64,000 bases of DNA from an uncultured Candidatus Saccharibacteria bacterium (GTDB lineage Bacteria; Patescibacteriota; Doudnabacteria; UBA920): contig CAYLIB010000006.1 of assembly GCA_964384035.1 (NCBI GenBank), positions 13,336 through 77,335 on the forward strand. The letters are read 5' to 3'. The notes under the pieces are model-generated. The model searched no databases, was not told the DNA's origin, and was given only the letters and a program-made list of their open reading frames with translations. Position 1 is the stretch's first letter, and every line of letters starts with the position of its first letter. The translations under genes were made by a program, and so were the position numbers. Of the stretch, positions 34,981 to 39,260 are shown in pieces.

Positions 34981-35091
34981 ATTAGGGTACTACCATTGTA
35001 TCAATAAAGTAATCAGCGGGGTATTGAAATATTTTGTTAAAAATGTTAATGTGCGCTTTAAATTTCTGAAAATTTTATAGAGGAGGTGTCT

Positions 35092-35346
35092 ATGAAAGAA
35101 ATAGTAATATGTTCAGCCGTAAAGTTATCAGACCAGAGAATCATTCACTGTCATAGGCATTCAGACGGAATCCTCGTTGCGAACCAAGTACATAAACAGA
35201 AAGTCATCGAACAGGGTTTTGTGACTTCTACTGGGCGCTACGTAGATCGTACTGAGGCTTTTCTCATTCAAGAATCGGCTGGTATCCCATCAAAAAGCAA
35301 AGACGGCTATCGTGGCCGTCTGCTCTTTAGCGAAGATCTCTATTAG
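35092..35346 (+). CDS. hypothetical small protein
   Basis: AGGAGG RBS. 84 aa. Followed by terminator ctccac-cta-gtggag-ttttttatt (35352-35375). Confidence 0.5.
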   Translation: MKEIVICSAVKLSDQRIIHCHRHSDGILVANQVHKQKVIEQGFVTSTGRYVDRTEAFLIQESAGIPSKSKDGYRGRLLFSEDLY

Positions 35347-35358
35347 TTATCTCTCCAC

Positions 35359-35778
35359 CTAGTGGAGTTTTTTATTATTATAAGAAAGTAGTATTTCTAA
35401 TGCTTTCCTTCCTATTCTAGGTAATGTCTCTATTTCACTAGCTTTAACAATCACCACACCCTTACCTTCATGTAATTTACCTAAATCTATTTCTAGCCCT
35501 TCATAAGAGAAAACTGAAACATCTCTCGCTATTTCACTTCTCTCATCGTTCGATACAAAACTTTCAAAATACTCTAGCTTACTTGGCTCAATTTGAGCAT
35601 CTAATTCTTCCATAAGTTCCCGAGCGATCGCCTGTTCAGCTGTTTCTCCTTCCTCAATTGTCCCGCCAAACAAAGCTATCTCATCAGGATCTATTATATC
35701 TGGTTTATCGTCCCGATCTTGTAGAATAAAATTTCCATCTATATCGGTTAGTATTGCGATTACACTTTTATTTTTCAT
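35359..35778 (-). CDS. NUDIX hydrolase
   Basis: Nudix box GGTIEEGETAEQAIARELMEEL. Confidence 0.8.
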   Translation of the reverse strand: MKNKSVIAILTDIDGNFILQDRDDKPDIIDPDEIALFGGTIEEGETAEQAIARELMEELDAQIEPSKLEYFESFVSNDERSEIARDVSVFSYEGLEIDLGKLHEGKGVVIVKASEIETLPRIGRKALEILLSYNNKKLH

Positions 35779-38515
35779 TTTGTATTGTTTTAGGCCATTC
35801 TTGTACCATTATTAATTCGCTCCTTACTAGTCCTCGCTCAAATAGTAACCCCCAAATATACTCGGTTACAAATGGCATGAAAGGGTGAAGTATTTTTAAG
35901 ATATGTATTAACACATGAAGTAAAATCCTCTTTGTATTGTTAGCTAATTCTGGATTTTGCATTTGCACTTTACTTGTCTCTATATAAATATCTGCAAATT
36001 CATGCCAGGTGAATTGGTATATTTCCTGTGCCGCTTCGTGTAGCCTAAAACCTTCTAGGTGAGAAGTAACTGCAGTAATAGTCATATCTAGTTTTCGAAG
36101 TATCTCTGTATCCGCCTCAGTTTTTACCTCCCACTTCCAATCACTCTCCTCTACATTCTGCATAATGAACCTGGAAATATTCCAAAGTTTGTTTCCAAAA
36201 TGCTTCATACCTTTTATTTTATCCTCGGCGAGAGGTATATCTGTTCCAGCAGACGTGGAAAATACTAAAGCAAAACGTAGTGCGTCAGTTCCATAGGTGT
36301 CTATAACACCAAGTGGATCAATAATGTTTCCTTTGCTCTTGCTCATTTTCTGTCTATCCTTGTCTCTTACAAGACCATGTAAATATACTGTTCGGAAAGG
36401 AACTTCACCTACGTGATAAGTCGACATAAGGATCATACGTGCAACCCAGAAGAACAGAATATCGTAACCAGTTTCCAGTACATCTGTAGGGTGAAAAGTT
36501 TCTAGATCAAAAGTTTCATTAGGCCAGCCAAGAGTTGAGAACGTCCAAAGGCCTGAACTAAACCAAGTGTCTAAAGTATCAGGATCGCGGATCAAGTTTT
36601 CACCCGTAGGCTCTTTCAGTAAAAAATAAGATACAACAGAACCATTTGGTCTAATTCCTACGCGCTCTCTTGCCGCTACAAATTCATCTTTCTTTTTACC
36701 CTCTAGAACCGCTTGTATGACTATATTTGTAATGTTGTGGCCAGCAATAAGAATAGGGCCTTCCGTCTCTTGTTTTAAGGTTTCTATAAATTTTAAAACT
36801 CTAACTTCTAAGGATTCTAATTTCTCACCAGTTCCTCTCTTTATTGCTTCAGCAAAAGGGTTGGGGCACTCCTCGAGGCTTAAATTTCCTACATCACCTT
36901 TATCAAACTCCCTCATATCATCGTTAAAGACTATATCATTTTCATTAAGTCCTATAATTTCGGCAACAATCTTAGCAGTTTGAGTAGATCGAATTAAGCT
37001 AGATGCATAAATTTTCTTAATACCTCTACCCTTTAATTTCTCTCCTAATTCTCTCGCCTGATCCTCACCCTTTTTGGTTAGGGGAGTGTCCCCGGAGGCA
37101 ATTCCAGAAGCATTGCTCTCACTCTCTCCGTGTCTAGCAAAAATAATCTCCACCTCTTTTGGTAAATGAATATTTTTTTGCTCGTCATACCAAGCAGGAA
37201 TTTGGTGTCCAAATAATATTTGTCTAGAAATACACCAATCCCTAAGGTTATCTATCCAGTGGAAATATATTTTCTTAAAGTGATCAGGAATTATTTCAAT
37301 CTGCCCACTCTCCACCACATGTCTCATGCAGTGTTTAAGGCTAACTAATTCTCCATCTTTTATTCCTGGTATCCCGTCTCCTTTAAATCGAAATGGCTTA
37401 TTCACATCTATAAACCACTGCTCACGAATTTGAGGTTCTATTATTCCACCTCCACGAGAATTAGTAGCAATTCTGTGGTTATAATTCTCGTCTATTTTTT
37501 CTACTAAACCTTTAGCTTGTAGCTTTTCTATAAGCATTGGTCTAGCTTTCTTAATGTGTTGGCCCGCAAGTTCTCCTGCTATTGGGAGTAATATACCTTT
37601 AAGATCGATAATCTGCTCTATATCCAAACCGTGTCTCTGGGCAATTTCATAGTCCACCGCGTCATGCGCTGGGGTAATGGTCATTACACCCGTACCAAAT
37701 TCAGGGTCTGCAGCTGTATCTTTAATAATCGTTGCGGTAACTTTGCCATTTATCCATTCAACTTCTATTTGTTGTCCATGTTTGTATTCAGCGTAACGAG
37801 CATCTTCAGGATGCATTACTACATACTTATCTCCAAACTTAGTTTCGGGTCTGGCTGTACCAATGGTAAATGGTCCATACTTTAAATAGTAAAAACTAGT
37901 TGTTTCTTCTTTCCATTCTATTTCATCGTCGCTCACATTTGTTTGTAGTTTCGGGTCCCAGTTTACAAGTCGGTTACCACGGTAAATAAGACCATCCTCA
38001 TACATTCTCTTAAAAGCAGTATTTACCGCTGATACTTTCTGTTCGTCAAGGGTATAAGAAAGCCTACTCCAATCTGTAGAAGCACCCATTCTTTTTATTT
38101 GTGACAAAATAGTACCCTGCGAAGATAGGGCATAGTCATTCACCAATTTCACAAACTCTTCTCTAGAAAAGTCGTGTCGTGTTTTGCCTTCTTTTTTATA
38201 CAAATCAGTTTCTACTTTTGCTTGAGTAGCTATCGCCGCTGAATCTGTGCCAGGTACCCATAAGGTCTTGTAACCTTGCATTCTCCTGAAACGGATTAGT
38301 ATATCCTGAATTGTTAAAAACAATGCATGTCCAATATGCAAAACACCAGTCACATTTGGTGGAGGCATGGTAATGGTATAAGTAGGCGCATTATCAGGCT
38401 TGCCCTCCATAGCTTCAGCGGAGGAGGGATTAAAATACCCTGAGTCTTCCCATTTTTTATAAATATCTGCCTCTGCAGAAGAGGCATCGTATGCTTTCGG
38501 TAATTCTTGGTTCAT
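35768..38515 (-). CDS. valS: valyl-tRNA synthetase carrying an inserted histidine-phosphatase (RHG) domain
   Basis: PPPNVTGVLHIGHA (HIGH), WCISRQ, KMSKSKGN. About 180 aa between IPAWY and DTLDTWFSS hold ARHGESESN...IYASSLIRS...AGHNIT (PGAM/histidine phosphatase signature). Confidence 0.88.
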   Translation of the reverse strand: MNQELPKAYDASSAEADIYKKWEDSGYFNPSSAEAMEGKPDNAPTYTITMPPPNVTGVLHIGHALFLTIQDILIRFRRMQGYKTLWVPGTDSAAIATQAKVETDLYKKEGKTRHDFSREEFVKLVNDYALSSQGTILSQIKRMGASTDWSRLSYTLDEQKVSAVNTAFKRMYEDGLIYRGNRLVNWDPKLQTNVSDDEIEWKEETTSFYYLKYGPFTIGTARPETKFGDKYVVMHPEDARYAEYKHGQQIEVEWINGKVTATIIKDTAADPEFGTGVMTITPAHDAVDYEIAQRHGLDIEQIIDLKGILLPIAGELAGQHIKKARPMLIEKLQAKGLVEKIDENYNHRIATNSRGGGIIEPQIREQWFIDVNKPFRFKGDGIPGIKDGELVSLKHCMRHVVESGQIEIIPDHFKKIYFHWIDNLRDWCISRQILFGHQIPAWYDEQKNIHLPKEVEIIFARHGESESNASGIASGDTPLTKKGEDQARELGEKLKGRGIKKIYASSLIRSTQTAKIVAEIIGLNENDIVFNDDMREFDKGDVGNLSLEECPNPFAEAIKRGTGEKLESLEVRVLKFIETLKQETEGPILIAGHNITNIVIQAVLEGKKKDEFVAARERVGIRPNGSVVSYFLLKEPTGENLIRDPDTLDTWFSSGLWTFSTLGWPNETFDLETFHPTDVLETGYDILFFWVARMILMSTYHVGEVPFRTVYLHGLVRDKDRQKMSKSKGNIIDPLGVIDTYGTDALRFALVFSTSAGTDIPLAEDKIKGMKHFGNKLWNISRFIMQNVEESDWKWEVKTEADTEILRKLDMTITAVTSHLEGFRLHEAAQEIYQFTWHEFADIYIETSKVQMQNPELANNTKRILLHVLIHILKILHPFMPFVTEYIWGLLFERGLVRSELIMVQEWPKTIQNEK

Positions 38516-38521
38516 AATTTT

Positions 38522-39031
38522 TTACTTGGAGTCTATAAAATTTAATTTATTGGAATTTTTAAAGGATATGTAAATACCCGTTATTGCAGTAAATAGACCT
38601 AACAACCAGATAATATTACTAATCTCTTTTGCATGAGATAGTTGTCCTAGCATGAACAATAAATTATTCCAGTCATGACTATCAGTGTCGCCAGTAATTA
38701 AAGGCAATTGCATTCTTAGTGCGTCTCTAGCATAAACCGAAACATTAAAAAGATTTATACTTAACCAACATAAAGTAATTCCTGCAGAAAATTTTTGTTC
38801 CTTAAACCAAAAATAAAAAACAAAAATTAGCGGTAGTAAAACTTGTAGCAAACTTCCACCGAGAATAGTTAAAAAGTTGCCAAAAGGGGAGAAGATCACA
38901 TGACCAGCCTCGTGTACTATTAAATTTACCGAATCTATAAAATGCCAATCCGCACTAGAAAATGCGTAAAAGAATATATAAAGACCCATTACCGAAGCTG
39001 TTATGTATTTAGCTAATATTTTCTTGTCCAT
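38522..39031 (-). CDS. small polytopic membrane protein with HExxH motif (putative membrane metalloprotease)
   Basis: Start at the internal Met with GGGGTG RBS. HEAGH within a TM region. Five or more hydrophobic helices. Confidence 0.5.
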   Translation of the reverse strand: MDKKILAKYITASVMGLYIFFYAFSSADWHFIDSVNLIVHEAGHVIFSPFGNFLTILGGSLLQVLLPLIFVFYFWFKEQKFSAGITLCWLSINLFNVSVYARDALRMQLPLITGDTDSHDWNNLLFMLGQLSHAKEISNIIWLLGLFTAITGIYISFKNSNKLNFIDSK

Positions 39032-39260
39032 AAAATAAAACACCCCAAATGGGTGTCTACGTGCCATCTCTGGCGGTACCAACGTAAAATTACTTAATTG
39101 TGTGTTGTTACGGACACACCGTCGGGTTCTATAGGTCTATAGACTTTCTTCCCGAAGCCTGGCTATTATATAGTCATTCGTAGTGACAGCTACGACTAGC
39201 TCTTAAGCGCATAATAGCCTATGTACTAGGCTAAAGTCAAAGTAAAAATCGGGGGTTTAT

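Follow-up and report, generated by a model that had tools for sequence, protein, structure and literature searches.

The stretch of DNA analysed here (the window: 64,000 nucleotides of contig CAYLIB010000006.1, assembly GCA_964384035.1, from an uncultured bacterium of the Doudnabacteria lineage of Patescibacteriota) carries a gene for valyl-tRNA synthetase (ValRS, or valine--tRNA ligase) whose product holds an internal histidine phosphatase domain. The gene, valS, lies on the minus strand, as do all of its parts described below, and consists of a single uninterrupted open reading frame (ORF) of 915 amino acids followed by a TAA stop (35768..38515). Its N-terminal part, residues 1-452 (37160..38515), comprises the first half of the Rossmann fold, the editing domain in connective polypeptide 1 (CP1), CP2 and the first strand of the CP3 hairpin. 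The histidine phosphatase domain, of branch 1 of that superfamily, follows with 182 amino acids, residues 453-634 (36614..37159), its boundaries being set by alignment with three insert-less relatives (P0005, P0009 and P0012). The C-terminal part, residues 635-915 (35771..36613), resumes with the second strand of the CP3 hairpin, and continues with the second Rossmann half and the anticodon-binding domain.

A first-pass annotation of this DNA had proposed that a branch-1 histidine phosphatase of about 180 residues, at 36611..37153 (residues 455-635), interrupts the synthetase in a continuous frame, as a domain insertion. This proposal was borne out by the Pfam match to PF00300 that it had named as a check, by matches to the valS profiles that are split around the insert, by a split alignment to the structure of Thermus thermophilus ValRS (1GAX), and by the predicted structure together with a fold search. 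All the sequence strings on which it relied are present: ARHGESESN (with R461 and H462), IYASSLIRS (R509) and ILIAGHNITN (H593), as well as the flanking WCISRQ, IPAWY and DTLDTWFSS. The distance from WCISRQ to DTWFSS is 222 amino acids in the window protein and 41 in most related ValRS of Patescibacteria, which leaves about 181 extra residues.

The host synthetase

The window protein exceeds the cut-offs of two NCBIfam valS equivalogs, NF004349 (873.4 bits versus 704) and TIGR00422 (821.7 bits versus 612.1), and both matches come in two stretches, residues 7-454 and approximately 633-910, which flank the insert. The Pfam family tRNA-synt_1 also matches in two stretches (E=6.6e-130), the N-terminal one covering residues 18-469, and Anticodon_1 covers residues 802-911 (E=7.7e-29), while the isolated editing domain of ValRS (1wka/1wk9) finds its match in residues 210-333 (E around 1e-18). 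The class I signature motifs are in place, HIGH (residues 60-63; 38327..38338) in the first Rossmann half and KMSKS (residues 723-727; 36335..36349) in the second, as are WCISRQ (residues 427-432; 37220..37237) just ahead of the CP3 hairpin and DTWFSS (residues 649-654; 36554..36571) after it. No other ORF in the window encodes a class Ia aminoacyl-tRNA synthetase (aaRS).

Canonical bacterial ValRS end in a coiled-coil arm that binds tRNA, whereas the window protein stops 4 residues after Anticodon_1 and gave no Pfam match to this arm (Val_tRNA-synt_C, PF10458). The insert-less ValRS of Patescibacteria, with 719-750 amino acids, likewise do without the PF10458 arm, and its absence is a lineage trait that does not disqualify the protein from valS membership. 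The synthetase otherwise looks complete, with its HIGH and KMSKS motifs and its editing and anticodon-binding domains, and the gene is the housekeeping valS of the organism. Since all of these parts are present, the protein should still charge tRNAVal.

Identity and fold of the insert

PF00300 (His_Phos_1) matches residues 457-612 with E=6.9e-26 and 91.6 bits, against a gathering cut-off of 21.7, which is far beyond chance, and the A2 profile built for the insert matches residues 453-638 at 202.8 bits. The whole protein was modelled with AlphaFold2 at a pLDDT of 90.2 and a pTM of 0.87, with values of 85-98 over the insert region, and the insert modelled alone reached a pLDDT of 95.5 and a pTM of 0.91. 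In the model of the whole protein the first (453-461) and last (627-634) beta-strands of the insert adjoin the strands of the CP3 hairpin, the geometry expected of a domain inserted in a loop. When the insert was compared with the PDB using Foldseek, all of the top 50 matches belonged to the histidine phosphatase superfamily, whose alpha/beta/alpha sandwich the insert shares. The best of them were 9mmh, 4ij5/4ij6, 1tip, 6s2q and 6e4b (E from 1e-11 to 1e-13), and the matches by name were HFP (9mmh), iPSP1 (4ij5/4ij6), fructose-2,6-bisphosphatase, GpgP, CobC, PhoE and TTHB049. A profile of 20 inserts searched against PDB sequences retrieved CobC, PhoE and iPSP1 at E around 1e-37.

The characterised proteins PhoE (1EBB/1H2E), CobC (6NRU, 6E4B, TTHB049), iPSP1 (4IJ5) and HFP (9MMH) share with the insert both the fold and the R-H-G/N/R/E/H constellation (profile E around 1e-34 to 1e-37; Foldseek TM 0.65-0.81, query-normalised). 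They are also of similar size (177-211 amino acids), but all of them are free-standing, whereas the insert is embedded in another enzyme. CobC is an alpha-ribazole phosphatase, iPSP1 a phosphoserine phosphatase and HFP a phosphatase of the riboflavin pathway. The insert stays below the cut-off of every specific NCBIfam equivalog, among them CobC (TIGR03162; 59.6 of 162.9 bits), the archaeal dPGM (NF038349; 66.9 of 225), PspA (NF045917; 52.9 of 350) and SixA (TIGR00249; 33.1 of 74.5), and therefore no substrate can be transferred to it by homology. Within branch 1, the insert is a small and generic histidine phosphatase, of the PhoE/CobC/PspA-like kind.

Other possible identities were also considered. 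The embedded domains are net acidic, as are their free-standing homologues, and net charge was accordingly rejected as a sign of RNA binding. The PADLOC defence models gave no match for the insert. No Hint-type Pfam match typical of inteins was found either, and the insert, which starts at K453 and ends at L633-K634 before E635, does not have canonical residues at the would-be splice junctions, where an intein would show Cys, Ser or Thr at positions 1 and +1 and a C-terminal His-Asn.

The CP3 hairpin as the insertion site

In the nomenclature used for isoleucyl-tRNA synthetase (IleRS), the name CP3 belongs to a variable element that may or may not hold zinc and that joins CP2 to the second half of the Rossmann fold (PMC7191050). 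The whole model of the window protein finds T. thermophilus ValRS (1GAX/1IVS) as its top Foldseek match (E=3e-59, TM 0.70/0.74), and both halves of the synthetase align to it: residues 4-453 correspond to 1GAX 2-427 and residues 640-908 to 1GAX 445-706. The blocks of this alignment end at 1GAX 427 and resume at 445, and where the T. thermophilus enzyme has some 17 residues (428-444) at the tip of CP3, the window protein has a 182-residue enzyme domain. In 1GAX the CP3 hairpin holds zinc by two CxxC knuckles, whose cysteines are missing from the window ValRS.

The insert thus replaces the tip of the CP3 hairpin between the WCISRQ...IPAWY and DTWFSS blocks, and the alignment with the insert-less P0005, P0009 and P0012 places it exactly between the two strands of the hairpin. 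The first-pass annotation had located the phosphatase inside the catalytic core. Its position between WCISRQ and DTWFSS is indeed as described, but the site belongs to the surface, in a variable element that separates the two Rossmann halves, and not to the catalytic pocket.

The distance between WCISRQ and DTWFSS fell into discrete classes among 120 close homologues: 41 amino acids in most of them, 45-67 in variants with a zinc ribbon, 162-166 in four with an unrelated insert, and 216-235 in those with the phosphatase. Because other lineages bear zinc ribbons at the same tip, or an insert of about 120 amino acids unrelated to the phosphatase, we read the CP3 hairpin as a structurally permissive loop common to ValRS and IleRS. 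The unrelated insert, of about 110-130 amino acids, occupies the same hairpin in other ValRS of Patescibacteria (P0030, P0046, P0080 and P0088; loci L014, L017, L020 and L061), in some cases flanked by CxxC knuckles. A Pfam scan of this alternative insert in P0030, P0046, P0080 and P0088 gave one sub-threshold match, to ASCH (PF04266, E=0.0044), a weak lead that was not retained as an identification. Precomputed PF04266 matches are also found in P0039 and P0053, two proteins with about 120 extra residues downstream of DTWFSS.

Catalytic residues and selection

Every residue expected of a catalytic branch-1 histidine phosphatase is kept in the window copy: the R461-H462-G463 triad (37127..37135), N468 (37112..37114), R509 (36989..36991), the catalytic glutamate E536 (36908..36910), the conserved G563-E564 pair (36824..36829) and the second catalytic histidine, H593 (36737..36739). 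Across inserts that are 19-56% identical to the one in the window, the corresponding R, H, N, R, E, GE and H positions are invariant or at least 90% conserved. The full catalytic signature is present in 49 of 69 aaRS-embedded copies, against 130 of 148 free-standing relatives. In some lineages, including the cluster of P0259 and P0276-P0281 and the second copy in P0129, the acid glutamate and the second histidine have been lost (signature RHNR[S/A]EN) and the domain has been retained; these are possible pseudo-enzyme lineages. The suggestion of the first-pass annotation that the insert might be a regulatory pseudo-enzyme may hold for such a minority, but it is disfavoured for the window copy.

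Within the clade of the window gene (the window, L002 and L003), the proportion of non-synonymous differences in the insert (pN) is 0.31-0.33, against a saturated synonymous proportion (pS) of 0.68-0.81. The non-synonymous divergence (dN) of the synthetase core is 0.11-0.13 in the same comparison, the insert evolving about 3.5 times faster; pairs more distant than that of the window with its closest orthologue, L005, are saturated at synonymous sites. A pN so far below pS points to purifying selection on the insert, about 3.5 times more relaxed than on the core. Judging from its residues and their conservation, the insert is probably active as a phosphomonoesterase.

Occurrence in relatives

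Of the 120 best homologue clusters, at least 33 combine ValRS with PF00300, at 52-93% identity, and they come from NCBI, JGI, ENA and Logan assemblies. Among the species representatives of GTDB, 6 of 79 loci bear the insert, including metagenome-assembled genomes (MAGs) labelled Moraniibacteriota and Magasanikiibacteriota, and a protein of Kaiserbacteria is among the valS homologues found. The closest orthologue, 93% identical and also with the insert, comes from a separate MAG (L005, CAYSUI010000003.1), and contigs carrying the insert reach 0.5 Mb (P0011) and 1.37 Mb (P0170). Several MAG loci (L007, L012, L035, L048, L056 and others) encode ValRS 50-69% identical to that of the window under the titles "uncultured Gammaproteobacteria", "Bdellovibrionales" or "Saccharibacteria", and these submitter labels look unreliable.

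Since the window derives from a metagenome-type genome, an assembly chimera or a frameshift artefact joining a phosphatase gene into valS had to be considered. Its probability is negligible: both junctions are in frame and fall at the structurally sensible tip of a hairpin, the AlphaFold2 model of the whole protein is confident, the orthologue in L005 comes from another MAG, and four data sources supply at least 33 further clusters of the same architecture. An assembly artefact is effectively excluded by these comparisons, and the survey of relatives that had been proposed as a check found the same insertion in many independent assemblies.

Multiple copies, isoleucyl-tRNA synthetases and free-standing relatives

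When 1.84 billion representative proteins were searched exhaustively with the insert, 7504 matches at E<=1e-3 were returned, and the long proteins among the best 150 of these were mostly class Ia synthetases. Their architectures are diverse. A single phosphatase copy at CP3 is found in ValRS that do have the C-terminal coiled coil (P0130, P0140 and P0170), an arm also present in the insert-bearing ValRS of loci L007 and L008. Two tandem copies sit at CP3 in P0137, whereas P0127 and P0129/P0275 combine one copy at CP3 with one upstream of WCISRQ, and a ValRS fragment, P0126, carries four. Two IleRS, P0145 and P0248, hold a pair of copies, for which both use the CP3 site and P0145 uses another one downstream of KMSKS as well; both pass the ileS equivalog (857 and 830 bits versus a cut-off of 621). 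Three incomplete proteins (P0132, P0139 and P0266) have ileS as their best NCBIfam match, below the cut-off; P0132 and P0139 are among the carriers of two to four phosphatase copies. As far as can be read from sequence, a phosphatase within the synthetase is therefore a recurrent arrangement of both ValRS and IleRS, for which three sites and up to four copies are seen. The names under which the carriers are filed in NCBI and the other sources include "valyl-tRNA synthetase" and "valine--tRNA ligase", and for some only "class I tRNA ligase family protein".

An embedded copy is mostly more similar to other embedded copies than to free-standing ones. Its nearest free-standing kin are stand-alone histidine phosphatases of about 181 amino acids, a very large family in Patescibacteria that is also seen in Berkelbacteria and Nanoarchaeota; with the insert profile they score 146-158 bits. 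They have the same length and motifs as the embedded copies, with 24-47% identity to those compared, the best pairs of free and embedded domains involving P0134 and P0142, but they are separate and uncharacterised genes. The insert most probably derives from such stand-alone phosphatases, which are abundant in Patescibacteria. The neighbourhoods of free-standing homologues, one of which was examined in detail, offered no informative context.

Tandem arrangements also occur outside the synthetases: two adjacent stand-alone His_Phos_1 genes, of 181 and 191 amino acids, stand in tandem at 882-2013 of locus L088, and there are free-standing histidine phosphatase proteins with two domains (about 410-430 amino acids) and with three (P0144). 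From these examples, this phosphatase subfamily seems to be prone to tandem duplication in general.

Phylogeny, recombination and gene neighbourhood

In a tree of the ValRS core, proteins with and without the insert are interleaved, and the nearest relatives of the clade to which the window gene belongs, with 77-83% core identity, do not have it (P0005, P0009, P0010 and P0012). Such a distribution requires several gains, losses or recombinational transfers. The similarity between inserts is also independent of that between the ValRS cores (Spearman around 0). A rough neighbour-joining (NJ) tree of the domains, weakly resolved as are all our NJ trees, contains about 20 groups made only of embedded copies and no single clade for them, the window copy falling in the largest group (n=18). 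The order valS, P-type ATPase, rpoC/rpoB is common to the window and to relatives whose valS has no insert, and the existence of close orthologues at the same locus without the domain indicates that it is accessory to tRNA charging.

The comparison between the window and L005 reveals a local event. The synonymous divergence (dS) of the insert is 0.053, against 0.74 for the rest of the gene taken together, and a sliding profile shows a tract of about 1.7 kb (window positions ~36530-38230) with 95-100% nucleotide identity between flanks of 55-90%. This tract spans the insert and also about 1.1 kb of ordinary valS, and it indicates a recent homologous recombination in the gene. The 14-fold lower dS of the insert was for this reason rejected as a sign of mobility specific to the insert. 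Recombination within valS nonetheless illustrates how the insert could pass from one allele to another.

Around valS, a Nudix hydrolase ORF of 139 amino acids (35359..35778, minus strand; PF00293, E=7e-12) overlaps the valS stop by 11 nucleotides and has a weak match to the PADLOC candidate family PDC-S07. It was rejected as a general functional partner of the insert, because a homologue downstream of valS occurs only in L005 among loci L001-L089. Upstream of valS there is an ORF for a predicted membrane protein of 186 amino acids (38522..39082, minus strand), and downstream a segment (~35038-35337) with an ORF of 86 amino acids; neither has a counterpart in L005 or a Pfam match. Rfam and tRNA scans gave no match in the window.

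A proposed tethered phosphatase and its alternatives

The explanation that we favour, with a confidence slightly better than even, is that of a tethered and mechanistically independent phosphatase, accessory to the synthetase and hosted in a permissive loop common to ValRS and IleRS. The valS product would be bifunctional, combining aminoacylation with the hydrolysis of phosphomonoesters by the usual mechanism of the family: His462 would attack the phosphorus to give a phospho-histidine intermediate, with the phosphate held by Arg461, Arg509, His593 and Asn468, and Glu536 would act as the general acid/base. The first and last strands of the insert carry straight on from those of the hairpin, so that the domain forms an autonomous globular module on the surface of the enzyme. 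Its substrate would presumably be a small phosphorylated metabolite or nucleotide, and the first-pass annotation had put forward phosphorylated nucleotides of the ppGpp or Ap4A type as candidates. The generic sequence of the phosphatase, the acidic character of the domain and the acceptance of zinc ribbons and of an insert of about 120 amino acids by the same loop all argue for this autonomy.

Several observations weigh against such independence. It is in ValRS and IleRS specifically that the domain turns up again and again, with three different sites and as many as four copies, and the embedded copies are mostly closer to each other than to the free ones. Both points argue that the domain is functionally tied to these synthetases and has not simply been carried along. 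In yeast IleRS, the pocket for the CCA end of the tRNA is lined by the WCISRQ-type motif directly ahead of CP3 (PMC7955072), and the phosphatase module could accordingly lie near the 3' end of the tRNA. The retention of the domain in lineages that have lost the glutamate and the second histidine is, in turn, a hint of a non-catalytic role.

The first three of these points have also been counted in favour of a possible, although considerably less probable, explanation, in which the domain is a translation-coupled module for repair or immunity. The phosphatase would remove a phosphate that blocks aminoacylation, restoring in cis either the tRNA, from a 3'-phosphate, a 2'-phosphate or a 3'-pyrophosphate on its CCA end, or the enzyme itself, from a phospho-serine placed on its own KMSKS loop by a Hip-type kinase. 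Toxins that add phosphate act on these same two targets: toxSAS toxins pyrophosphorylate the 3' ends of tRNAs, and the HipA/HipT kinases phosphorylate a serine in the KMSKS loop of GltX/TrpS. The presence of the domain in two sister synthetases, with one to four copies at CP3, before WCISRQ and after KMSKS, would suit this role, as would its patchy and accessory distribution, typical of conflict-related functions, and the weak resemblance of another CP3 insert in relatives to ASCH, a predicted RNA-binding fold. However, the domain is as acidic as its free homologues, matches no PADLOC model and has small-molecule phosphatases as its closest characterised homologues; no toxin or kinase gene was seen beside valS in the loci examined, and the need for repair of only ValRS and IleRS lacks an explanation. 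In its most specific form, a built-in repair or immunity enzyme set beside both the CCA-end pocket and the KMSKS loop, which strips phosphates from the tRNA 3' end or from the synthetase, we regard the proposal as unlikely.

Two further explanations are both improbable. In the first, for which we see little chance, the domain would be a structural or binding module that holds phosphate or tRNA or stabilises the protein, perhaps offsetting the missing coiled coil of a short ValRS. The window protein does lack Val_tRNA-synt_C, the cluster of P0259 and the second copy of P0129 persist without their acid glutamate and second histidine, and the insert changes some 3.5 times as fast as the core. But the catalytic residues are all kept in the window gene and in 49 of the 69 embedded copies, even among inserts with as little as 19% and at most 56% identity to that of the window; the domain also occurs in ValRS with a coiled coil (P0130, P0140, P0170, L007 and L008); short ValRS without any insert are the majority and presumably function; and the domain is acidic. 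The second, which seems to us a shade more improbable still, would make the insert a selfish or mobile in-frame element, or a neutral one, harmless in a permissive loop and spread by recombination through the conserved flanks. Its patchy distribution on the core tree, the independence of insert and core similarities, the approximately 20 embedded-only clades of the rough NJ tree and the recombination tract that covers the insert and adjacent valS speak for such an element. The NJ trees in question are weakly resolved, however, the tract takes in about 1.1 kb of ordinary valS and is thus not specific to the insert, no intein features are found and the junction residues are K453 and K634/E635; the conservation of the catalytic residues over deep divergence, with pN well below pS, moreover points to selection on an enzymatic function. 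The tethered phosphatase hence remains our preferred explanation.

Relation to known systems and significance

The two halves of the window protein belong to well-known families, valS and branch 1 of PF00300, and their combination is new as far as the searched literature and the solved structures show. The top 50 PDB matches of the whole model are all ValRS, IleRS or LeuRS, none of them described with a phosphatase domain, and full-text literature searches yielded no paper describing a histidine phosphatase inside an aaRS. The closest concept is the NCBIfam exception family "ileS_w_GNAT", an IleRS with an N-acetyltransferase domain, in which a class Ia synthetase likewise has a further enzyme-like domain within its chain. 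The likeness is drawn from the name of the family, its fold being GNAT and not histidine phosphatase, and the window protein scores 184 bits against its cut-off of 1999. The first-pass annotation had called the architecture highly unusual, a description that suits the literature searched and the solved structures, but less so the metagenomic Patescibacteria, where it is met repeatedly, in IleRS as well as in ValRS.

Few enzymes are as conserved as the aminoacyl-tRNA synthetases, and extra domains attached to them are well documented in eukaryotes. For a bacterial class Ia synthetase whose core holds a complete second enzyme in its connective-polypeptide region, no description was found in the literature and structures searched. 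Within the candidate phyla radiation (CPR) this arrangement recurs in both ValRS and IleRS, at several sites, in up to four copies and with the catalytic residues usually preserved, and it is no one-off. There is also a consequence for annotation, as some of the carriers go only by the name of "class I tRNA ligase family protein" in NCBI sources.

What the finding means for these bacteria depends on how the phosphatase relates to its host. If it is autonomous, CP3 would be a natural permissive site that displays whole enzymes on an essential protein, which would be useful to protein engineering and to the understanding of gene fusion in reduced genomes. If its activity is coupled to the state of the tRNA or of the synthetase, it would represent a new layer of translational quality control or of toxin resistance in ultra-small symbiotic bacteria. 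And if the repair explanation were true, the CPR would possess self-healing synthetases, and with them a new principle, that of an aaRS with a second, phosphate-directed "editing" activity.

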